Positions 12,801 to 64,000 of a stretch of DNA of 64,000 nt are shown piece after piece. The notes below the pieces were generated by a model. It worked only from the letters and a program-made list of their open reading frames with translations, was not told the origin of the DNA and did no database searches. Location: IMG/VR virus record IMGVR_UViG_3300020356_000001, positions 17,362-81,361 of that record; one strand, 5' to 3'. This DNA comes from a virus (Duplodnaviria; Caudoviricetes). How positions within the stretch are numbered: position 1 is the stretch's first letter; every line of letters starts with the position of its first letter. Both the position numbers and the translations under genes were made by a program.

Positions 12801-14823
12801 CAAACAAAGAATAATCCCCACCATTACGTTCAATAATGTCAGTGATCTGCTTCTCAATAGAACCCCAAGTACGCCCATCAGGATCACCAGCGATTTTAGA
12901 TCCGGGTTTATTTAACTTCTCACCCCAAAAATTGTCAGCAATATCACCTTCTTCTTTAAGAAGTTTCCGTGCCTCATCAGGAGTAATCTTCTCACTCTTA
13001 ACACGAGCAGCGACAACAGCCTCAAACTCATCAGGATCAACATACTTACGTCTAAGTTCAGGACCTTGAGGTTTCCATTTACCACGAGACTTATGTATGC
13101 GCCTACTGTATTTACCTGACTTAGCCCACGCTTCCTGAATCGCTTCTTGCGCCTCGTCAGTTAATTGGCGAGGCACATAATTATCTATAAAAGACAACCA
13201 ATCTGCCCCACCACCAGCCCTGTTAGCCTCCACTCTTAACAACTCAAAAGTATCTCTACCTTTCTGCAAAAGAGCATCATCTATACCAGCAGCAGCATTA
13301 ACATCACCAGCCAAAGCATGATACATCTGGCTAACATCTACACCTGCTTCGTCAACATCATTCAAAAAATCGTTAGCGATACGGCTCAACTGAACTTTAG
13401 TACTACGACCTTTTGAATTACCTCGCGCGACAGCATGTATAACACGTTTACCTTGCTGAATAAAAACAGAATCAGAAGATTCACGAATAGCAGTTTTCAA
13501 CTCAGGCAACCGACCAGCAAAACGACCCTTAGTAACCATACGAGTCAACCCGCCACGCTGACCTATAATACCGTTACGTAAACCTTGCGGGATGCCTGTA
13601 ACTAACTTGCCTAAAATAGGAGTTTCAGAAGTCATAATACGCATACCGACAGGAGCCTGAACTCCTTTACGAGTAACCTTATTAATAGCCCTTTCAATAG
13701 GATCAGCAACTCTTAAAGCCCTACCCACTGGACCCGTAAACGGAACCTTCATACCAAAAGACAATTTCATTTTGGCAGCATCATCAGCAGTTAAAAAAGC
13801 ACCTTTAAAACCTTGTTCTGCTTGACGAAAACCTTGACGTAAAGGATCAGTAAAAGCATCATCACCAAATCTTGCAGCACGATCCAAACCACTATCAGCC
13901 CATTTAGAAGCAGCAAAACGAAGATCATCACCATCAACAGATGTCGCACCTTTCTTTTGCGCACGCGCACCTATCTCATATAAACGCTCTAAATCAGCAA
14001 CTTCCTGATCCGTAAACTTAACAACTAAAGACTGTGCATCTTCACCAATTTCTTCAACCGCTGTTCTGGAAGTCCACTCCCAGCCATCATCAACTTTTTT
14101 CAAAGAAGATTTACCACCCTTGGCTATATCACCAGCAATGTCATCCGCTAAAGCAGACCAATTAGCGTTATCCATTTGACGGGCGACATAACCCATACCT
14201 TCATCACCAACTGTTTTACTAAGATTAGTTAAAGCAGACTTACGAACAAGTTCTCTACCTACTTCACGCGCACCTTTTCGAGCCAACGCACTACTAAACG
14301 CTGCACCTTTACCTACAAGACCCAGATAAGACAAAGGATCTAAAGCAACGTCACCAATAAAACCTAAAGCAGCAGCACCAAATTTTTGCCAACCACTATC
14401 ACGATCCTGCATGACATCATAGTCATGCAACAAACGACCAAAAGTATAATTGTCATTAAACTGTTTTTTAAAATCACCCCAACTGGCATCCTGCCCAGTA
14501 AAAACATCAATAGTTTCTTTTAACGCAGAACTAGTAAAAGCCAAAGGCTTTTGAATAACATTAAGAAAGCCGCCTACAGGTCCCTTAGTTAAAGCATTTA
14601 CATACCAAGGAGTGTTTGCTTTAATGTACCGTTCATTAGCCCACGCAACATTGTGACGAGAAGGAGCAATAGTCGTAGACAAAGGCGCTCCTGCGCTTTT
14701 GCCAAGAATTGATTCTAAACGACCACGATCAGTAACTTCACCTACACCAGATATATTACGTTTTTCGCCAAGTATGGCGCTTAATCTGCCTCGGTCTGTG
14801 GATGTAGGAGTTTCATATGCCAT
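6850..14823 (-). CDS. Giant internal virion/ejection-type polyvalent protein (2657 aa) with PI3/4K-HipA-like kinase domain
   Basis: Late-operon position; kinase motifs at about 10450-11280; C-terminal FDYDDLSDFER...VIPFYTWTRKNMP region like large polyvalent virion proteins. Confidence 0.75.
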   Translation of the reverse strand: MAYETPTSTDRGRLSAILGEKRNISGVGEVTDRGRLESILGKSAGAPLSTTIAPSRHNVAWANERYIKANTPWYVNALTKGPVGGFLNVIQKPLAFTSSALKETIDVFTGQDASWGDFKKQFNDNYTFGRLLHDYDVMQDRDSGWQKFGAAALGFIGDVALDPLSYLGLVGKGAAFSSALARKGAREVGRELVRKSALTNLSKTVGDEGMGYVARQMDNANWSALADDIAGDIAKGGKSSLKKVDDGWEWTSRTAVEEIGEDAQSLVVKFTDQEVADLERLYEIGARAQKKGATSVDGDDLRFAASKWADSGLDRAARFGDDAFTDPLRQGFRQAEQGFKGAFLTADDAAKMKLSFGMKVPFTGPVGRALRVADPIERAINKVTRKGVQAPVGMRIMTSETPILGKLVTGIPQGLRNGIIGQRGGLTRMVTKGRFAGRLPELKTAIRESSDSVFIQQGKRVIHAVARGNSKGRSTKVQLSRIANDFLNDVDEAGVDVSQMYHALAGDVNAAAGIDDALLQKGRDTFELLRVEANRAGGGADWLSFIDNYVPRQLTDEAQEAIQEAWAKSGKYSRRIHKSRGKWKPQGPELRRKYVDPDEFEAVVAARVKSEKITPDEARKLLKEEGDIADNFWGEKLNKPGSKIAGDPDGRTWGSIEKQITDIIERNGGDYSLFVDDIETAMRGYVNQISKRAGEVYTESLLFSEGILIDRMAEFVKLPSSRAVQAGRRFRDAQAAWMNATSNLMEAMNRKSAGVGDQAVVDKNIEELQAVVDQAEREVLEADAIQRRYADEITRQEESYVAVQAERAEVDEQIARLTKDIEDNPDAANIVKLEEERLRLVDKSKSLAMDETSLRFAYETLGSGTAQVLFLERAITSVFKTSDNFDLFVRELGGLNPADPNADLAAFAAANELPSFLRQEGDRFIFVGEAGFESDVELLFGNMDGILQQSDEKGIGVWLGVERELDVLARQPKVEVPTTGAADAVLTGWETGNAAYKLDWSLKRIRLDMEEATKVIDDYAEFADVDVLDIPTPDNVTTAKAGILQALDQGIADGRSLDEVLTSPDVMDLLYTYHAGSGLPARATLFDGREMSEMIQQIDEALDIQIDYYATTIRDLEDAAEAAGQPLRLVVQPPNGGEPIIMTVRDAVQLKKNLQAMQNVPTTSQIPAGPVGVSIDDILINGTLLEGPLGTNVGGKYQLGDKVYYVKQYGDEAFDPETGESFFVRNGNGRDRVTGEVLSNALYRELGLSAPASYASRASDGSIYHVSPWLDDLTTIQQSGLDPATARVYTDGNGVQFLADPTDPRVQQVDAVGVPFVEVLARGLAADVLLSNWDVLGTGFDNVGVSALDGVTRIDNGGSFFHRAQGALKENIGWNYLDPEEDIDSMLQSARFAYEDLVKGGVVDGDLTRALGNQVRELLDLRNRMGGMENFVRRHMPGLAAEEQASYVDFLESRLEALANKFNQPFFAQGSDDLIGATLAARSVPQRTIDEAIKNGTATRLLHQSNSSFLAPSLRYGSPELAWADKPSLNVTLDGMYVDNTSPYSYNLVLDTPLGAKNIKVYGLHADTEVRVAELMMRQTSIESPEDIERFAIEMHDIIKGSGRGGYLAAADPLVSSGAGHMMLDQIARVHDADPELLRKVLRVWERTAKDLPDMLSGGFAAGSLRREQISKSAAVVRMALEMGDIAIPTSAFGIDPQRAQMVQKLNSMSFEERLRFAIWMTDTSGGGQVSRRLTEGQIMRPRLTDPWEKNIAKLSTELRKELNIKTGDVPEMLSVYLGQIDSAINPDGWAGQIAKNNFMLSRFAGGIDALLFTMQPSGTPISQLSDKAVKPQQWLFKNFYETYRRSLSADGYNATAWFNEEEITMSANALSEAVPFQGKRFSPSPQLWANMMVTNPLAVHSSDVMTTHRNISRIASDAAFDSADLSDDAARRLHNPYPDDPDMPMIIDPDDESNVLKTAGELWEDEAAAIETIIGKGSMGAAEGQTKFIDAASFLDWWDGQAQSYMGPNYQGVGPNAYQIDLMEALVNKRALLTQNLEEVSVVHAELSRKFANAVADKGRTDVNAGMSQWALDTALAQKQGQIDRAKETLARLGAPENVPLEDIPDDLVEIRLAVGALIDNDAEMLNLALDQFEEGANDWLELVSQFPEGADDLHRIPKREEVLDTVFRSGFKPIGATLQGPEAIVESMVAAERYVARGGAAGFFRKYDKLHNLLRAYMIAKPGFHGRNFMSAVFMNHLSGMNWSNYRRFMRSYWKFQEEEATRLGLTDRASSMRKAMKARGINPNNVNPEHVQYIRQLSESGALGAAGGQVATEFVETGGKGIGPSVTIRGKKINLIDAMNPASSRNAPLRLSRNLGMATETFVRGSLGFDTLYKGGAVDEAFDNVMKFHFDYDDLSDFERNVVKKVIPFYTWTRKNMPLMFEMFARKPAVFNRYNSLKKEIEATTESPPSVYPRWMQRQGAIQLPFKFEGEDMFILPDMPFKAPLELLDPALAFDKDLSVVDRVQIALGTFGTQVTPLIKAPYEWKAKQNLWKDYNFDGRYEVVPRAYAMIPGLMPLLNMGGLAAKNDQGDWAMKDYELHTMAQLLPTFTDFRRLFPDEQRYQERTLSSWMSFAFGIGLRTNTKYEQQMELISRGYEMRDEISQEKSLRGARLR

Positions 14824-19079: not shown

Positions 19080-19388
19080 TTATTCGGCTGCCTTTGCTGC
19101 TGCTGTAGGAGGATCATCAGGCCAAACAACTTCGGACACCTTGCTAAAACTAGCAGGTAAGTCACGTAGTTCTTGTCTGTATGTCGCCCATTCCTCAGCG
19201 GTATGATCGCCTAATGTTGCGTCTGCTATTTGAGTCCAGTCACAATCACGCAACAATGCGTTACGATGCACTCTGGTAAAAGTGAAATCCAGATCCATTG
19301 CTGTGGCTCTATCTTCCATTTCTTTTATTTCTTCTGCCGTGAGTTCGATGTACTCACCGTTCACGACCTTATATCTTGGTTCTGCCAT
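19080..19388 (-). CDS. Tail-fibre assembly chaperone-like protein (copy 1)
   Basis: RNALLRDCDWTQ...WATYRQELRDLP...WPDDP motif. Confidence 0.8.
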   Translation of the reverse strand: MAEPRYKVVNGEYIELTAEEIKEMEDRATAMDLDFTFTRVHRNALLRDCDWTQIADATLGDHTAEEWATYRQELRDLPASFSKVSEVVWPDDPPTAAAKAAE

Positions 19389-19427
19389 ATTTTCTCCTAT
19401 CCTGCTCCATTTATTCCATATAATGTA
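19080..19427. repeat. Direct repeat, copy 1 (copy 2 at 63653-64000; offset 44,573 bp)
   Basis: Manual alignment: 2 mismatches over 19246-19427, about 15 over about 19102-19245. Confidence 0.95.
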
Positions 19428-29961: not shown

Positions 29962-30117
29962 ATGCATGCAAATTCAGAAGCGTTATGTCAATTATGTGAT
30001 TCAGTTATTGCAGAGGTAGTTACCAGCTCAACTATTGCTGGTGTTACTGAGATGGTTGATGATGCCATTGTTTGTAGTAAATGTTTCGATGAAGAAAGGG
30101 GGGATATATATACATGA
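29962..30117 (+). CDS. Small zinc-finger-like protein (51 aa, not in ORF track)
   Basis: CQLC...CSKC. Confidence 0.5.
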   Translation: MHANSEALCQLCDSVIAEVVTSSTIAGVTEMVDDAIVCSKCFDEERGDIYT

Positions 30118-30407
30118 CTGGTAGAATGAAAGAATATATGATGGAGATGGAGGAGGAACAGATGAATGAACCTGACTTAAGCTCTGTCTTTGGTGCTGAC
30201 ATAGAAATCTATTCACCTTCTGCGATCTTAGAAATTGCAGGATGCTATGACGTAAAGATAAGAGAACACATAGCTTTATATGGCAGAGCAGAAATTAATC
30301 ATGCACATTTTACAGAACGTGTTACTTACTACCAAGCTAGAAAGAGAAATCTTCTAGTGTTATGGGCTGAAGTAACAGATAAAAGAAGGGAGTCAGAACC
30401 TTTCTAA
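30114..30407 (+). CDS. Hypothetical early protein
   Basis: ATGA-coupled 97-aa ORF. Confidence 0.6.
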   Translation: MTGRMKEYMMEMEEEQMNEPDLSSVFGADIEIYSPSAILEIAGCYDVKIREHIALYGRAEINHAHFTERVTYYQARKRNLLVLWAEVTDKRRESEPF

Positions 30408-30415
30408 ATTCGCAC

Positions 30416-30741
30416 ATGTTCTACTAAAGCAGGAGTAATGGATGACTGTGGCGGTGTGCGCTAGTACTGGTCCCGAAGGGAGAATGTACTTGACCGAGTA
30501 GTAGAACATTGATAGTGGCAGGTGGAATACGGGGATAGGAAACTATAGGTATCCACTTGTCACTATCACAATTATTCATGGTTCACCCCTCTATATAGAA
30601 CGAACATAGAACCATGAACGAGTAGAGCAAATGAGTTTTATTTTCATTTCCTCAAGGGCTGATTGTAGTGACCTTTAAGTGTGAGTAATCATGGAAGGCG
30701 CTATGAGAGTGGGTTCGATTCCCACCTACTCACGCACTTAA
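30416..30741 (+). ncRNA. Candidate structured ncRNA of about 330 nt ending in a tRNA-like acceptor/T-arm domain
   Basis: Consecutive long stems with G.U pairs, a GAAA tetraloop, and GTGGG-TTCGATT-CCCAC T-arm. Confidence 0.6.
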
Positions 30742-30759
30742 ACAAATAGAAAGGGGTGC

Positions 30760-31167
30760 ATGATGAGAGATATAACTCTTGTTGGTAATTTAACTCGTGA
30801 GTTCGAGTATAAAGCATTGAGTAATGACAGCGTTGTAGCTAATGGTTCAATGGCTGTTAACTCCAGGACTAAAGATCCTAAGACAGGTGAATGGGGTGAT
30901 GGTGACCCACACTTCTTTAACCTTGCAGTATGGGGTGAAGTTCAAGCAGAGAATGTAATCGAGTCTCTTGATAAGGGGACTAGGGTTATTGTTAACGGAC
31001 AGATCAATATGAAAACTGTTACTGATGATGATGGTAATAAGAAAACATATAGTGAAGTTAGAGTTGAACACATTGGCCCTGAATTGAGATGGGCTACATG
31101 TTCTGTTGCTAGAAACGCTAAAGGTAACAGTACTTCTAAGTACAATACACCTGAAGAGAAGTTCTAA
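30760..31167 (+). CDS. ssb: Single-stranded DNA-binding protein (actinobacterial type)
   Basis: ITLVGNLTR...AVN.R...GEW.DG...FFNLAVWG...AENV.ESL.KG.RVIV.G...IGPELRWA. Confidence 0.9.
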   Translation: MMRDITLVGNLTREFEYKALSNDSVVANGSMAVNSRTKDPKTGEWGDGDPHFFNLAVWGEVQAENVIESLDKGTRVIVNGQINMKTVTDDDGNKKTYSEVRVEHIGPELRWATCSVARNAKGNSTSKYNTPEEKF

Positions 31168-32235: not shown

Positions 32236-33121
32236 TAAACAACCATTCTTAGTGCAAAAACTAGCTGAACAATGGAGTGAAAATAATGAAGCTCCATCTA
32301 TGCCGGATGATAAAAGTTGGCGTGGTTCAATGGCAGGTAGCTGTGCTAGGCAAGTGGCATACAGGTTGAGTGATACTGAAGCATCTGATCCTATTGACTT
32401 GGCTGGGTTCTGGAATATGGGACTGGGTTCAATGATTCATAATGAATTAGAACAAGCGATACATGATTGGGCTGACAGTCAACCGAATGTAGAAGTTATT
32501 GCGGAACATGAAATGGAACTGGGCGAACGTGGCTATGGTCATGCTGACACATTAGTTATCATGGACATTCCTTGGGTTGGCAAAGTCAAGGTGTTATTTG
32601 AATTGAAAACTGTTGGTGGTTTCGGTTACAAGAACATGATTGGTTTGAACAAAAACAAGTATGCGGAAGGACCGAAGTGGAGTGCATTCGTACAAGGTGC
32701 GATGTATGCAAGTGCTGTTGATGCTGATTTGTTAGTCATCGGTTACTTGGCACGTGAGGGTGTCAGTAAGAACATGGCAAAAAACTACAGCAAGTCAGAG
32801 ATAGAGCGGATGGGGGCAGAGTGGCACTATACAAAGGAGCAGTACATGGTAGTAGCCGCCGAGGAAATCGAACGGCTCGATGGGATATCGGCGGCAGTAG
32901 CGGAAGGGAGAACTCCATCTGAAATACCAGCTAGGTTTTCTAAGAGTGACCCTGAGATCCCATTCCCTGCTGAAGTTACACATCCTGAGAAGGGAGCGTG
33001 GAGATTGTATGCAAAAGATGGAAGCTTAGTGAATGCAGGTACTACTTGGATGTGCAACTATTGTCAGTTTCAACAACAATGCAAGGGAGATACTGATGAC
33101 GTTTTATCTAGGGACGCATGA
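32222..33121 (+). CDS. Cas4-like PD-(D/E)XK exonuclease with four Cys (possible Fe-S cluster)
   Basis: GSCARQ, LGSMIH, GHAD, ELKT, Q..MYA, CNYCQFQQQC. Confidence 0.8.
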   Translation: MRVNSKQPFLVQKLAEQWSENNEAPSMPDDKSWRGSMAGSCARQVAYRLSDTEASDPIDLAGFWNMGLGSMIHNELEQAIHDWADSQPNVEVIAEHEMELGERGYGHADTLVIMDIPWVGKVKVLFELKTVGGFGYKNMIGLNKNKYAEGPKWSAFVQGAMYASAVDADLLVIGYLAREGVSKNMAKNYSKSEIERMGAEWHYTKEQYMVVAAEEIERLDGISAAVAEGRTPSEIPARFSKSDPEIPFPAEVTHPEKGAWRLYAKDGSLVNAGTTWMCNYCQFQQQCKGDTDDVLSRDA

Positions 33122-33824
33122 ACCACACTGGTTAGGAAATGTAGACGTACCTTTATTTGTATCACGTAGAAGATTAGATAGATTAAACAAGCTACCAGTA
33201 GCACTATGTCAGTGGTCTTTGGATAGCGGAGGGTTTACTGAACTACACCAATATGGTGGCTGGCAATTATCTGCTACTGATTACGCATCAAAAGTAAAAA
33301 GATATATAGATGAGATAGGTAATCTAAATTGGGCGGCTCCTCAAGATTGGATGTGTGAAACAACTGCCTTAAAATCTACGGGGTTAACTGTTCACGATCA
33401 TCAAGTTTTAACTGTTGATAACTTTCTTGAGCTTAGACAATTATTAGGTGAAGTTGTTGTTCCAGTTCTACAAGGATGGGAGTATGACGATTACCATAGA
33501 TGTGTAGAGATGTACGATAAAGCTGGTGTTGATCTTTCATCTGAACCTACTATCGGATTGGGTTCTGTTTGTAGACGACATGCTTTAAAAGAAATAACTC
33601 ATATCATTACCAGCCTTCAACCTCTTAAACTACATGGGTTTGGAGTTAAAGGAGATGGATACAAAGCTAACTTACATAGATTAGTTAGTGCTGATTCAAT
33701 GGCTTGGTCATTTGGTGCAAGATATAAACCACCTTTAGATGGATGCACTCATAAGACTTGTGCTAATTGTAAACGCTTTGCTTTGTTGTGGAGAGATCAA
33801 ATGTTAAATGGATTAGAGGATTAA
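33096..33824 (+). CDS. TGT-fold, queuine tRNA-ribosyltransferase/DpdA-like protein
   Basis: LDSGGF, PQDWMCE, PVLQG, IGLGSVCRR, HGFGVK, SADSMAWS motifs. Confidence 0.75.
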   Translation: MTFYLGTHEPHWLGNVDVPLFVSRRRLDRLNKLPVALCQWSLDSGGFTELHQYGGWQLSATDYASKVKRYIDEIGNLNWAAPQDWMCETTALKSTGLTVHDHQVLTVDNFLELRQLLGEVVVPVLQGWEYDDYHRCVEMYDKAGVDLSSEPTIGLGSVCRRHALKEITHIITSLQPLKLHGFGVKGDGYKANLHRLVSADSMAWSFGARYKPPLDGCTHKTCANCKRFALLWRDQMLNGLED

Positions 33825-36228: not shown

Positions 36229-37290
36229 TTACCAGCCCTCATCTTTTCTGTCTTCAACTAAGATAGGAGTTTGCCAAAGTATTCCTTTCTCAGGTACATT
36301 GATCCATAGAGCTTGTTGTGGAACCTCGAAAGGAAAGTTCTCCACTGAAGCGTACTCATCGTAACCCTTAAGCGAACCGTTCATTATAAAACCAGATGAA
36401 GGAGCTAATATTAATTGATGGAAATGACCCAGGACCATGCAGGTGAAGTCTGAGTTATTTCTTTTACGTGCCACTAGCCTCATTATTGGAGGCCAGATGC
36501 CACCTATCCCACCACCACCACGAGCTTGATCGCCGTGAGTTAGGAGATAAGTAGAATCATGGATAGTAACAAAACAATCAGGACTGTCAGGAATATTAAA
36601 GGTAACTCGATCATCGCCAGCCCAGTGCGATTCGAGAGTCTTAGCGAGGAACCAATCGAAGTTGTCTCTAGCTCTGAGTTTAGATCGGGGCTTCCTCGTG
36701 CGTCTGCCATGATTACCGACGACGCATGGAACATGCACGTTACCAAATTCATCGGCAAGCATCCCGATACCAGAGGAGAGTTGGTCTGCCCAGAAGAGAA
36801 CAGAACCGAGCATGGTGTCTTCGTTGGTTTCTGTGAGTTCGGTGTGGATATCCCCACTGAACAAGTCACCTCCAAGAAAAAGGACACAGCCCGAATAATC
36901 CAGACCGGCGAGATAATCATTGGTGAGAAGGACAATCTTCTCAAAGAACTTTCGGAGTCTCTTGACCCCGATGTCTCTGTTGTATGCGTTGCGCCCTTGG
37001 ATCTCGTCAGGGTTGACGACTTCATCAAAGTGTGTGTCCGAAAGCACAGCACAAACTATGCCAGTTTCCTTGCCTTGCTTCTTGGGACGGAGCCACGAGG
37101 GTGGCTTGACCGAACGGCTTTTAAGATCAGCAAGAAGATTAACTTGGCTGTCAAGAATTTCAATCTCTTTCGTAAGCGCTTTAACTTGAGACTTAGCCGT
37201 TAAAGCTTCAGTTTTATAACGAGATGCTTCTCGTAAAACTTTAGTTATATCTTCACTTGCCGTGAAGTCTTCTAAGTTAACGTCTGGCAC
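36229..37290 (-). CDS. Calcineurin-like metallophosphoesterase with N-terminal coiled coil
   Basis: SDTH, GGD, GNHG, THGD, GHFH motifs. Confidence 0.8.
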   Translation of the reverse strand: MPDVNLEDFTASEDITKVLREASRYKTEALTAKSQVKALTKEIEILDSQVNLLADLKSRSVKPPSWLRPKKQGKETGIVCAVLSDTHFDEVVNPDEIQGRNAYNRDIGVKRLRKFFEKIVLLTNDYLAGLDYSGCVLFLGGDLFSGDIHTELTETNEDTMLGSVLFWADQLSSGIGMLADEFGNVHVPCVVGNHGRRTRKPRSKLRARDNFDWFLAKTLESHWAGDDRVTFNIPDSPDCFVTIHDSTYLLTHGDQARGGGGIGGIWPPIMRLVARKRNNSDFTCMVLGHFHQLILAPSSGFIMNGSLKGYDEYASVENFPFEVPQQALWINVPEKGILWQTPILVEDRKDEGW

Positions 37291-50781: not shown

Positions 50782-53700
50782 TCACGATCAGGTATAATCT
50801 TCGGTGCAATCCTTATAAGCCCTGCTCTAAACTGACCAACCCATTCCTGATTCAAATAAGGGATAACAAGGTTATTTAACAAAGGTTGTAGATGCGGTTT
50901 GCCTGCCACTTTTTCCTCAATTCGTCTTAAAAAGAATGCTTTCACAAAACTCCTATAGTCTTCAACATTTGGTCTTTTATTAATAACTTCCAATTCGTAG
51001 TTTAATCTAACAATGTCCATCATTACATCTAAAATCTCATTCTTATAAGGTGAATCAGGTATCATTTCAGGGTTTCTAACAATCTTTCTAAACTCTTGGA
51101 ACGTAGCTTCACGCCTTATAGATGAACGTCCCTTCTGAGTTTCAACAAAGAACACAGGATGTCTGTCCATGAAACCTTTATCCCAAATATTGAACCTTTC
51201 AGTAAGTTCCTTAGCCGCTTTCATTTGATTCTGTGATTGTAAAACTGCAACAGCATAAGCATTGCGTTGTTTACGGTCATAATATTCTGAAGCCGCGCCA
51301 TTAAAATAGAAATCTTTAACGTATTCTTCTTTGCTTTTAAGTTCTCTTAAACCTTTAGCTATCTGACGTTGCTTCCAACCCCAAGCCATGTCTTCGTTGT
51401 ATTCCAAACCAACTTCGTAAGGAACTAAGAAGCTGGTTGAATGAGGGAAATTCATAGCCCATTCACCGTTTTCTGTTAACCATTTATCAACAGCCTTACT
51501 TTGTTGTGTGTAACCAACACCTGTTTTTTTGCTGGTACCAGTCTGGAAGAGAGACATCTTTGTTTGAGTTTCCCAAGAGTCTTTATCAAAATCTTCATCA
51601 TACTTATGGTTGTCATAGAACATCAGCAAAGCTTCATCATGTGTCCATCCTTGCTGAATGTACCAATGCAACTCAGAGTTCCAATCCCAAGCATCACCGA
51701 AACGTAAATCTTTGTTTGTTCCTTTACCTGTACCTAAGAACCATGTAGTGAAATTCATGCCCATTATCTGTTGCGCTTCATGGTCTAACTGTTCCATGAA
51801 CTCTTCATTGAACAAATCAGGGTCTTCTTTTCTGGATATCTGATCTTGTGTAGGCATACGCCCTGTTGCTTGACGAAGTTTAACTGCTTGTATTTGTGCA
51901 GAAGCGAACTGTTCTCCCCTGTTCCAATGCTGTTGTGTCATAATTAATCCCTGAGATATTGGATAAGGGAAGAAAGCATCAAGGAAATCATGCAGTTTTG
52001 AATTACCAGCATCTTCAGCATCTCTATTGTCTGCTACATAAGCAAACCGTTCTTGCATGAAAGGACTTATATCTTCAAAAATTGTAGGATCAGACACAGC
52101 TAACCGTGTCAATGGGTAAGAAATAAACGGTCCGACTTGTGGCCTGCCAACAGTTTCTAAATCGTATCCTGGCATAAGTCTGTCAAGTCTGAACATTTGG
52201 TCAACTGTAGGTATGCTTGCTACACCTGCAAGATATCCACCTATAACTGGTATTTCATGTAAAGCATCCATTAAAACTTGACTTGACGGCAACGTAGCAG
52301 GAATAATCAAGTACCTTCTCCCATTCTGATCTTCTCTAACAAGCCCTGCTTTTTCACCGCCACGAATAGTTAACTGAAGATTACGTAACATCAAAGGATT
52401 TTGTGTCAAGCCTCTAACCCAACGTCGTAAATACAAATCTTCAGCAAACCAGAATGGGATTAATGATCCCATCATTTCTTGGAATTGTGACCGTATACGA
52501 TGATCGTCAATGAATGAAGCTGTAACTGAACCTGCTTTTTCCATAGCATGATTGACACGGTTCTGATGTGCGTTGAATCTACGGTTAGAGTATTTAGTTA
52601 ATTCTCTAATAGCTCCTGCTTTATTATTACTCTTTTCTATAAGAGCTTTCATAAAATCAAGATCAGAGTTTCTTGCTATAAGTTCTGCAACTTGAGCGTG
52701 ATCGCCTTGAGACATAGCATAAGCAACTCTTGACAATGCATCATTGGGATCTAACGCTTGGTTAGACCATACGTGCTTAATGAAATCTTCCAACTGAGGA
52801 ATAATATCTGCTTCATCTACAGTGGAGAATAATCCAAGCTTGTTTAAAATAGGAGATTCTTTCGCGGCGTTAATCATGTATGTGCCTTCAGTTTTCTCAT
52901 ACAATCTCCACGCTTCAGCAAAGTAATGAGTGAACATTGGTTCACGTACCATAGCTTCCATAGCAGGATGAATCACACCATCGAACCATGCGGTAAGAAC
53001 TTTATTCCAAAGGTAATCAAACTTTTGTTGCCCTTTAAATTCGTGCGCGCCTACTCCTATTTCTGCATAAATACTTTGCGGTAGATCAGAACGTTTCCCA
53101 TTAGCCATTAAGCGAGAAGGAATAACCTCGTCATCTAAAAGTTCAAATAAGATTTCATGCATAGCAGTTTCAGATGTTTGAGATAAAGTTATTTTCTTTA
53201 ACCCTTCCAACTGGACTCGTGCCATATCTTCAACCATTGCATCAGTGTCGTTTAACACTGTGTAAAATTCGTCAGCTATTTCCCAATCGTCAGGGTTGAA
53301 ATCTTTGTTTGTGTAATTTGCTTGAGATGTGTAATATTCCGTTTTCCCAGTCGTAGGATCTTTACGCTTATATGTTCTCTTTAAAATAACTTGAGGAACA
53401 GAATCTTGTATCTGTACCACACCTCCGGGTTGAGCAAGAACGTCTTGTGCTACAGCGAACACTGATTGGTTTTCAAAACCACCGACATCTTCAGGAGAGA
53501 TTATGCTTCCGTCATCTCCAACAGTGTAAAAAATTCTTGAACCATTTGGTTCTATACCAGCTACTTCTGAAACAACTGTTCCATTCTGATTCACACGAGG
53601 CGTTGTACCATACTGATTAGTTAACCGAGCTTCAGTAAGACCCGGCTTAGCAAAGAAAGCATCCGAACTAATATCCCTTACTTCTAATTTAGGTCCGATC

Positions 53701-63652: not shown

Positions 63653-63961
63653 TTACTCTTCGGCTTTAGCTTTAGCTGTAGGAGGGTCATCAGGCCAAAC
63701 AACTTCGGACACCTTGCTATATGTTGCAGGTAGGTCACGTAGTTCTTGACGGTATGTCGCCCATTCTTCAGCAGTATGATCGCCTAATACTGCGTCTGCA
63801 ATTTGAGTCCAATCACAGTCACGCAACAATGCGTTACGATGCACTCTGGTAAAAGTGAAATCCAAATCCATTGCTGTGGCTCTATCTTCCATTTCTTTTA
63901 TTTCTTCTGCCGTGAGTTCGATATACTCACCGTTCACGACCTTATATCTTGGTTCTGCCAT
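63653..63961 (-). CDS. Tail-fibre assembly chaperone-like protein (copy 2)
   Basis: 97 of 102 residues identical to 19080-19388. Confidence 0.85.
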   Translation of the reverse strand: MAEPRYKVVNGEYIELTAEEIKEMEDRATAMDLDFTFTRVHRNALLRDCDWTQIADAVLGDHTAEEWATYRQELRDLPATYSKVSEVVWPDDPPTAKAKAEE

Positions 63962-64000
63962 ATTTTCTCCTATCCTGCTCCATTTATTCCATATAATGTA
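63653..64000. repeat. Direct repeat, copy 2 (runs to the window edge)
   Basis: Last 77 bp (63924-64000) exactly match 19351-19427. Confidence 0.95.

Follow-up and report, generated by a model that had tools for sequence, protein, structure and literature searches.

A tRNA-like cloverleaf within a structured RNA region upstream of a marine phage ssb gene: a candidate end-forming signal for early transcripts

In the MALAT1 transcript, the 3'-end signal is a transfer RNA (tRNA)-shaped element, mascRNA, that lies inside the longer RNA, takes no part in decoding and lets RNase P or RNase Z create RNA ends. Plant mitochondria provide a precedent for such tRNA-like end-forming signals in their t-elements (Forner et al. 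2007, PMC1920247). YrlA and other bacterial Y RNAs are tRNA mimics with a T arm that are also found in phages, and in Mycobacterium smegmatis YrlA is cut by RNase P and has CCA added (Chen et al. 2014, PMC4201824). In the Cluster A mycobacteriophage L5, around 90% of Pleft transcripts, which start at 51,672, end at 51,140-51,190; the Pleft RNA, ~500 nucleotides (nt) long, is stable and very abundant and gives rise by processing to species of 100-400 nt, and the Pleft region is toxic to M. smegmatis when expressed (Dedrick et al. 2017, PMC5712189). Here we analyse a gap free of open reading frames (ORFs) that lies upstream of ssb, the single-strand DNA-binding protein gene, in the early operon of a marine phage and contains a tRNA-like module of its own. 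The window is a stretch of 64,000 nt, bases 17362-81361 of the 81,361-base pair (bp) IMG/VR virus record IMGVR_UViG_3300020356_000001; positions below are those of the window unless stated otherwise, all features described are on its plus strand, and related loci are designated by the prefix L.

Our preferred reading, to which we give a probability of roughly 45%, is that the gap belongs to an early-transcript RNA in which the tRNA-like module serves as an end-forming and stabilising signal. The gap, already singled out as ORF-free in an earlier reading of this DNA (the original prediction), extends from 30408 to 30759, between a 97-amino acid (aa) ORF and ssb, with no credible ORF inside. As that prediction proposed, the gap specifies a structured RNA outside every Rfam family (an Rfam search gives nothing at gathering scores) and the RNA is that of the plus strand, since natural variants retain some pairs only as G.U. 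The helices it listed are likewise present: the 11-bp pair ATGTTCTACTA/TAGTAGAACAT at 30416-30426/30499-30509, 17-nt arms with G.U pairs at 30510-30526/30552-30568, a 10-bp pair at 30575-30584/30609-30618 and, at 30709-30725, the T arm GTGGG-TTCGATT-CCCAC, with CTACTCA after it. For the gap as a whole the folding energy is -116.4 kcal/mol (z = -4.3), a value equalled by none of 100 shuffled sequences, and the reverse strand folds less well (z = -3.8). Taken singly, the modules have z-scores of -2.3 (domain 1), -8.8 (hairpin 2), -4.1 (hairpin 3) and -2.6 (the tRNA-like part).

The tRNA-like module (30619-30733) forms a four-way cloverleaf without an anticodon loop, both in the centroid fold and in RNAalifold analysis of an alignment of only 8 distinct sequences. 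Its acceptor (GAGUAG, 30620-30625, with CUACUC, 30726-30731) stacks directly on the T stem (30709-30713/30721-30725, loop UUCGAUU) and leads into the 3' tail AC (30732-30733). Arm 1 pairs AAAUGAG (30629-30635) with UUCAUUU (30643-30649) beneath a U-rich loop, and the long arm 2 (30663-30706) is capped by GUAA (30685-30688). The original prediction was right that this module imitates the acceptor/T-arm half of a tRNA and that no CCA is encoded; its further statement that there is no canonical cloverleaf has to be amended, as a non-canonical one exists. Acceptor and T stem are 100% paired in all eight distinct relatives, and a model built on the cloverleaf (R2) scores 138 bits on the window copy. 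Substitutions G30681A and G30705A convert a G.U to an A-U and a U.G to a U-A in arm 2, and C30729U and A30724G turn an acceptor pair into G.U and a T stem pair into U.G. In lineages whose SSB proteins are 72-86% identical to that of the window phage, the T-loop UUCGAUU and the acceptor/T-stem stack are invariant or change only to G.U, with the flanking modules replaced.

Two partners had been offered for the 3' acceptor strand, GAGTAG at 30620 and GAGTA at 30683, and only the former is backed by relatives. The latter would produce a 53-nt mini-tRNA (30681-30733, GUGAGUA/UACUCAC) in competition with the cloverleaf. Comparative data favour the distal acceptor, GAGUAG 30620/CUACUC 30726: the terminal pair of the mini-tRNA is broken in 4/8 relatives, G30681A and G30705A would give A.C mismatches in it, and L058/59 retain CGAGUAG, the T arm and CUACUCAC with the middle replaced and the GUGAGUA strand absent. 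The sole direct repeat found in the gap is 11 nt long (TGACCGAGTAG/TGAACGAGTAG, 30491-30501 and 30615-30625); it places an identical GAGUAG in the 3' side of domain 1 and in the 5' acceptor strand of the cloverleaf, and CUACUC could pair with either.

Canonical tRNA, tmRNA and YrlA each fail to account for the module. ARAGORN, one of the checks suggested at the outset, calls no tRNA or transfer-messenger RNA in the window or the whole record; with its threshold lowered it makes 174 calls across the record, which we regard as noise. The best weak Rfam match at E up to 10 is to tRNA-Sec, at 20 bits against a cut-off of 47, and covers the acceptor and T arm only. Among cultured phages, BLAST turned up nothing related to the region; its matches were generic T-arm similarities to the tRNA-Thr of Streptomyces phages. 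A transfer-messenger RNA (tmRNA) is ruled out by the lack of an ARAGORN call, of a tag reading frame and of an encoded CCA, and by a third acceptor pair that is G-C, not G.U; permuted tmRNA yields no more than an 11-bit T-loop match in Rfam at E up to 10. YrlA adjoins the Ro60/Rsr gene, has a GNCGAA Rsr-binding motif and possesses an acceptor-like stem closed by a loop (PMC4201824). This too is ruled out, as the 81-kilobase (kb) record has no match to TROVE (PF05731, Ro60/Rsr), in a search that detected control genomes, the acceptor is built from the 5' and 3' ends of the module, and GNCGAA is absent from its 5' side.

A second T-arm element is found elsewhere in the record, the make-up of which needs to be set out here. 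Self-comparison shows that genome positions 36444-36788 recur at 81020-81361 with 93% identity (window 19083-19427 and 63659-64000). This 345-nt repeat bounds one unit of ~44.6 kb, so that the record seems to comprise part of one phage (A) joined to a complete relative (B), which explains why it encodes two virion proteins of 2657 aa and two copies of domain 1. The possibility of two domain 1 copies per genome is ruled out by this arrangement, each phage having one. The gap under study sits in phage B. In phage A a larger T-arm element (CGGGUUCGAAUCCCG followed by ACUACCCAC; L002:1101-1310, genome ~14087-14296) precedes that phage's domain 1 by ~180 nt. The 5' partner of this element could be either UUGGUAG or GUGGGU, and in one of its internal hairpins L002 and L034 differ by compensatory change.

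A pattern derived from the record's two T-arm elements matched 11 loci in IMG/VR, all with a 5' GGGUAG-type partner and six of them in Cluster A mycobacteriophages; all but one are neither a tRNA nor a member of an Rfam family. At L035:697-770 there is an odd tRNA-shaped gene with the same CUACCCAC end, which scores 36.5 bits as an Rfam tRNA and to which ARAGORN gives an unassignable 2-nt anticodon. By BLAST, the Cluster A element is present, unannotated, in 120-155 Cluster A records (our Cluster A loci also include L083-L089, L033, L036 and L038-L042). Across 12 diverse members, 13 of its 31 pairs show compensatory changes and the T stem exists in four versions, with the T-loop and acceptor invariant and the tail either ACUA or ACCA. 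The ACCA tail occurs in Rachaly, Miko and the provirus L036. In L5 the element (L045) occupies 51,132-51,226, and the published end of Pleft coverage at 51,140-51,190 falls inside it. No tRNA-like fold in the Pleft RNA is mentioned in PMC5712189, and our literature search found no paper describing one.

The 5' part of the gap is taken up by domain 1 (30411-30509), a pseudoknotted fold with ~30 homologues. A 5' strand, CGCACA (30411-30416), lying before the outer helix P2 (30417-30426/30499-30508), pairs with UGUGCG (30455-30460) in the junction to form the pseudoknot PK1. Within P2 are P3 (GCAG 30429-30432/CUGU 30446-30449), with an invariant 13-nt loop, GAGUAAUGGAUGA, the 3-bp helix Px (CGG 30452-30454/CCG 30494-30496) and a variable hairpin, P4 (30463-30490). 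Phage A has a copy (L002) that is 91% identical, exact-word scans located the domain in 4 IMG/VR contigs, 25 marine metagenome contigs and one contig binned with a Flavobacteriaceae metagenome-assembled genome (MAG), and a model of it (R1) recovers 25 instances at E <= 1e-17. It is almost invariant across ~30 marine phage contigs, with more than 40 positions unchanged, and there seems to be one copy per phage: a 94-kb contig with two copies looks like a doubled 47-kb genome. In an alignment of 19 distinct sequences, 95% of cells are paired and the observed covariation was reached by 0/500 shuffles. Compensatory changes affect PK1 (CGCACA/UGUGCG to CGUACA/UGUACG in three sequences, C-G to U-A), P2 (A-U to G-C via G.U, and G-C to A-U) and Px (C-G to U-A in L016). 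Some pairs persist only as G.U, fitting a plus-strand RNA, and P4 has been exchanged for at least six unrelated sequences of differing length. The domain begins directly after stop codons in several contexts and in most phages lies downstream of ssb, with varying neighbouring genes. On this evidence we consider domain 1 a strong candidate for a new functional RNA class.

In the ribozymes related to that of hepatitis delta virus (HDV), including the theta ribozymes of gut phages, and in exonuclease-resistant RNAs, a 5' tail pairs with the junction strand between two hairpins and an outer helix encloses all of these. Domain 1 resembles both groups in its variable peripheral hairpin and its intergenic phage position, and the covariation-supported order PK1, P2, P3, PK1', P4, P2' reproduces the nested double pseudoknot order P1-P2-P3-P1'-P4-P2' of the HDV-like ribozymes. 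It differs from them in that its first pair is C-G and not the G.U wobble found at the HDV-like cleavage site, in that its P3 loop has 13 nt, not the ~7 of the short L3 that caps a 3-bp P3 and forms P1.1 in HDV-like ribozymes, and tolerates a 39-nt hairpin insert, and in the extra helix Px, which encloses the junction strand and P4 and occupies, by pairing with CGG, the CCG before P2', where HDV-like ribozymes have an unpaired catalytic C. The HDV-family and exonuclease-resistant RNA models of Rfam give no match to domain 1, even at E up to 10.

Several further proposals for domain 1 were dropped. A mini-ORF, MDDCGGVR, follows AGGAG and its two substitutions are synonymous, but the length and frame of the peptide's tail are variable, and in L070/L073 an inserted 39-nt hairpin separates AGGAG from the AUG. 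A Ro60-binding site, GGUCCCGAAGG, similar to the GGUCCGA of Y RNA, is ruled out by the lack of a TROVE gene, by the absence of the hairpin from many homologues and by its occurrence in either P4 or L3. The hammerhead-like CUGAUGA is seen only in P4 of L004/L019/L026 and has no Rfam match, and a promoter is ruled out because its TTGACC falls within P4, which varies, and shows no conservation. The sub-hairpin UGGUCCCGAAGGGAGAAU (30468-30485; L070:135-175) is located in P4 in most phages, in the P3 loop in L070/L073 and is missing from others; it acts like a movable peripheral element. Among species genomes the only domain 1 match is L032 (PACY01000001.1), a 10-kb contig binned with the Flavobacteriaceae MAG, which gives a weak hint of the host or else is a mis-binned phage contig.

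Two hairpins separate domain 1 from the cloverleaf. Hairpin 2 (30510-30569) is long and imperfect. Its base, GAUAGUGGCAGG/CUUGUCACUAUC, is found in nearly all relatives and its interior, which includes AAUACGGGG, is variable; the arms are rewritten yet complementary in other loci, and the hairpin is present in L034, which is without domain 1. Hairpin 3 (30575-30618) has a 10-bp stem and a conserved 24-nt loop containing CACCCCUCU, with one stem pair being G-C in the window, G.U in L065 and A-U in L058/59. Part of hairpin 3, at 30576-30596, is a possible anti-start-site segment, complementary at 16/21 positions (76%) to 30746-30766, which contains the ribosome-binding site and AUG of ssb. This complementarity is retained in L058/59, ahead of a different gene.

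To see how these parts are distributed, contigs fetched via SSB homologues were compared for the modules preceding ssb. All four are present in L046-L052, contigs derived from Tara Oceans samples (SSB 100% identical), with P4 of domain 1 reduced to a stub in L048. In L053-57 (96%) hairpin 3 is missing and domain 1, hairpin 2 and the cloverleaf remain; L058-64 (86%) have only hairpin 3 and the cloverleaf, ahead of a 78-aa ORF. L065-73 (72-80%) have all four together with extra modules on both sides, for up to ~700 nt of noncoding sequence, and L074-82 (64%) have none of the four, only a different structured module. In L058/59 the 78-aa ORF takes over hairpin 3, the cloverleaf and the ribosome-binding site, ssb following another gene after a 13-nt gap. 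L034, a close relative of phage A, has the same noncoding region of 600 nt but for a clean absence of domain 1, with two bases in place of ~104, and in a complete 47-kb phage domain 1 and hairpin 2 lie downstream of ssb and the genome has no T arm. Searching four records of domain 1 phages for a T arm elsewhere gave none, the single motif match being inside a 993-aa ORF. The gap is a mosaic of modules gained and lost independently, not an indivisible RNA. Of the predicted multi-domain RNA of about 330 nt, the several domains hold good but the single obligatory unit does not: it is at best one arrangement of independent parts. In related lineages a structured, CCUCC-rich (anti-Shine-Dalgarno-like) module stands directly before ssb (L065:1867-2000, L070:462-591, L074:1778-2000), and L069/L073 have a further module of ~190 nt upstream of domain 1.

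How might such modules work? We suggest that the gap is transcribed with the early plus-strand genes as a chain of independently folding RNA modules. The cloverleaf, with its copy of the tRNA acceptor/T-arm 'top half' and its four-way shape, would be unable to decode and would most likely be recognised by the host tRNA-end machinery, namely RNase P, RNase Z or 3' trimming exonucleases, and the CCA-adding enzyme. Cutting of the long early transcript at this point would leave an exonuclease-resistant 3' end on an upstream RNA of ~320 nt and free the ssb message. Domain 1, its 5' tail knotted into its own junction only 3 nt past a stop codon, might plausibly form that RNA's 5' end or protect it. 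A cut at the cloverleaf could in addition detach the complementary 30576-30596 from the ssb start site and so unmask that site, as the retention of this complementarity in L058/59 tentatively suggests. We favour an end-forming and stabilising role because what is conserved in the cloverleaf is what RNase P, RNase Z and the CCA-adding enzyme read. The gap has no excess of promoter-like or terminator-like sites, so the ends of any such RNA would have to arise by processing. Folds, conservation, modularity and strand are matters of observation. The enzymatic steps, and a stable RNA in the window phage, we infer. That the module may be a processing signal is the best backed of the ideas in the original prediction, given a similar cloverleaf at the 3' boundary of the processed L5 Pleft RNA.

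A number of points weigh against this interpretation. Changes in the cloverleaf within the marine lineage are one-sided only (for example, G.U in place of G-C), no pair being altered on both sides, and a shuffle control gave no significance; the marine cloverleaf is therefore supported by conservation and by changes that preserve pairing, which falls short of covariation proof. The acceptor has 6 pairs and a C.A mismatch rather than 7 pairs, and lacks an encoded CCA. The link to Cluster A comes partly from loci picked with a pattern derived from the window element, and R2 finds the Cluster A elements at full length but weakly (E 0.007-0.17). The likeness may reflect convergence rather than common descent. 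For its part, the drop in L5 coverage might also be due to a hairpin immediately downstream of the element or to a tRNA-like RNA being poorly sequenced. The anti-start-site segment is absent from L053-57 and its statistical support is weak. Finally, the 47-kb phage has domain 1 without the cloverleaf and L058/59 the cloverleaf without domain 1; with the modules occurring separately, a single RNA with two armoured ends cannot be the general case.

Some of the same evidence could be read in other ways. The gap may be a purely cis-acting leader setting ssb translation, in which the folds and the pairing of 30576-30596 tune ribosome access and no separate stable RNA is made; possibly SSB itself binds the A-rich leader, in the way that gp32 of T4 binds its own messenger RNA. 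The ssb AUG comes 26 nt after the cloverleaf, with an A-rich stretch between them, the 16/21 complementarity takes in ribosome-binding site and AUG, relatives have the CCUCC-rich modules directly before ssb, and candidate structured RNAs have been reported upstream of phage SSB genes (PMC10690425). We nevertheless think this unlikely: cloverleaf and start site precede the 78-aa ORF, not ssb, in L058/59, domain 1 is downstream of ssb in most phages, and the Cluster A counterpart does not adjoin an SSB gene. In T4-type phages, promoter/stem-loop cassettes have spread between phages, and the modules here, above all domain 1, might similarly be mobile or recombination-promoting cassettes, conserved through recent transfer and not through any role as RNA. 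The precise presence or absence of domain 1 between near-identical noncoding regions (L002 and L034), the absence of domain 1 and hairpin 2 from L058/59, the ATTC that flanks the insert on both sides in the window and the near identity of the core in phages with SSBs 60-72% identical and with varying neighbouring genes would all fit. The variation is RNA-like, however, with invariant junctions and loops, compensatory and G.U changes in stems, a freely varying P4 and an extra hairpin in a loop of L070/73, and no transposase or homing endonuclease gene was seen beside domain 1. We rate transfer in place of function as quite unlikely, and mobility and function are in any case compatible.

A role in trans is improbable in our view, though the parts of the cloverleaf that are conserved, the acceptor/T-arm stack and the elbow-forming T-loop, are what would be expected of a sponge or decoy for host enzymes or defence toxins that read this half of a tRNA or its 3' end. 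RNase P and the CCA-adding enzyme act on Y RNAs that mimic tRNA (PMC4201824), and the L5 region containing the counterpart is toxic to M. smegmatis and its RNA extremely abundant (PMC5712189). Yet the L5 toxic determinant is not mapped to the cloverleaf, and the marine element lies inside an operon, not behind a strong dedicated promoter. We know of no target for such a sponge. The original suggestion of a decoy for anticodon nucleases is unlikely because the cloverleaf has no anticodon loop: the arm occupying the anticodon position is tipped by a GUAA tetraloop and gives way to an unrelated hairpin in a sister lineage, and with no anticodon arm these nucleases are excluded as targets. It is very improbable that the T arm is what remains of a decayed tRNA gene or of a tRNA-derived attachment-site core, the other hairpins being incidental. 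Its sequence is indeed generic, tRNA-Thr T arms being the sole BLAST matches in cultured phages, and neither ARAGORN nor Rfam calls a tRNA, but neither a tyrosine nor a serine integrase is encoded in the record, diverged lineages with replaced flanks retain both acceptor strands together with the four-way fold, a related element exists in the record's other phage, and the arms of hairpins 2 and 3 are rewritten but complementary. We give scarcely any credence to an element acting as DNA, be it a replication origin, primosome-loading site or packaging signal. The gap does adjoin ssb and other DNA-metabolism genes and its inverted repeats could form hairpins in single-stranded DNA, but it has neither iterons nor an AT-rich unwinding tract, only the one 11-nt direct repeat, its base composition is like that of neighbouring sequence, and several pairs are kept only as plus-strand G.U. 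To our knowledge the T-loop consensus has no role in DNA.

The gap follows a plus-strand series of small early genes and precedes genes for DNA metabolism: ssb, a Cas4-like nuclease, DpdA and a Gp3-like protein. The 97-aa ORF (30114-30407) has no family match and terminates (TTC TAA) with its stop codon 3 nt upstream of domain 1; the order of this ORF, the gap and ssb is also found in L046-L049. Its C-terminus (30387-30407), ...ESEPF, is similar to the acidic tails, ...PEEKF, of the SSBs encoded before domain 1 in other phages, and TTCTAA ahead of domain 1 is common to the end of this ORF and those SSB genes. Between the cloverleaf and ssb is an A-rich leader (30734-30759) with the ribosome-binding site AAAGGGGUG, which is kept together with the tRNA-like module in L053-59. 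The ssb gene itself (30760-31167) matches Pfam PF00436 (E=2e-23) and phrog_44. The DpdA (TGT-like) gene (33033-33824, Pfam E=5e-82) suggests the presence of 7-deazaguanine in the phage DNA.

Small marine phages (~40-45 kb) thus devote 350-700 nt of an early operon to folds outside all databases, a commitment which implies that the folds presumably matter for infection. The tRNA-like module offers a concrete, testable reason for the 2017 observation, in L5 and D29, of a hugely abundant, stable and toxic early RNA whose function was unexplained: the 3' boundary of the L5 Pleft RNA lies in a tRNA mimic supported by covariation, and this predicts the RNA end, the host enzymes that make it and the effect of deletion. 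A bolder proposal, which we hold to be doubtful, is that domain 1 represents a new 5'-end-forming class of RNA, either a self-cleaving ribozyme of HDV topology or an exonuclease-stalling knot, that together with the cloverleaf excises and armours the ~320-nt RNA, and that the cloverleaf belongs to a widespread, undescribed class of anticodon-less phage tRNA mimics, which would account for how the L5/D29 Pleft RNA ends, for its stability and perhaps for its toxicity.

Set against known systems, the cloverleaf shares with canonical tRNAs a 5-bp T stem that stacks on the acceptor and a loop of consensus UUCRANY, but, unlike the canonical cloverleaf of D arm, 7-nt anticodon loop and T arm, it ends arm 2 in a tetraloop, and it falls below the detectors' thresholds. 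Like tmRNA, it combines an acceptor and T arm with the lack of an anticodon arm and is flanked by pseudoknotted RNA. With the t-elements and mascRNA it has in common a non-decoding tRNA-shaped fold in a longer transcript, which in the window would be that of the co-oriented genes on either side; those elements are organellar or nuclear and their cleavage has been mapped experimentally. The Cluster A phages are unrelated to the window phage in host and type, their upstream RNA is unrelated and has no domain 1, and their element lies directly behind a strong promoter at the genome end, not mid-operon. The first arm of the Cluster A cloverleaf (UGGCG, GGAAUG loop) is not matched in arm 1 of the window, the string GGAAG occurring only inside arm 2. 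Both acceptors have 6 bp, GGGUAG/CUACCC and GAGUAG/CUACUC, which differ in one pair, on both sides, and both cloverleaves share the T-loop UUCGAUU and the AC tail and are absent from Rfam. The Pleft RNA of L5, D29 and StarStuff is likewise a gene-free stretch of several hundred nucleotides in an early transcript that ends in an anticodon-less cloverleaf. From this comparison, the marine and Cluster A elements appear to be of the same kind, and possibly of the same family.

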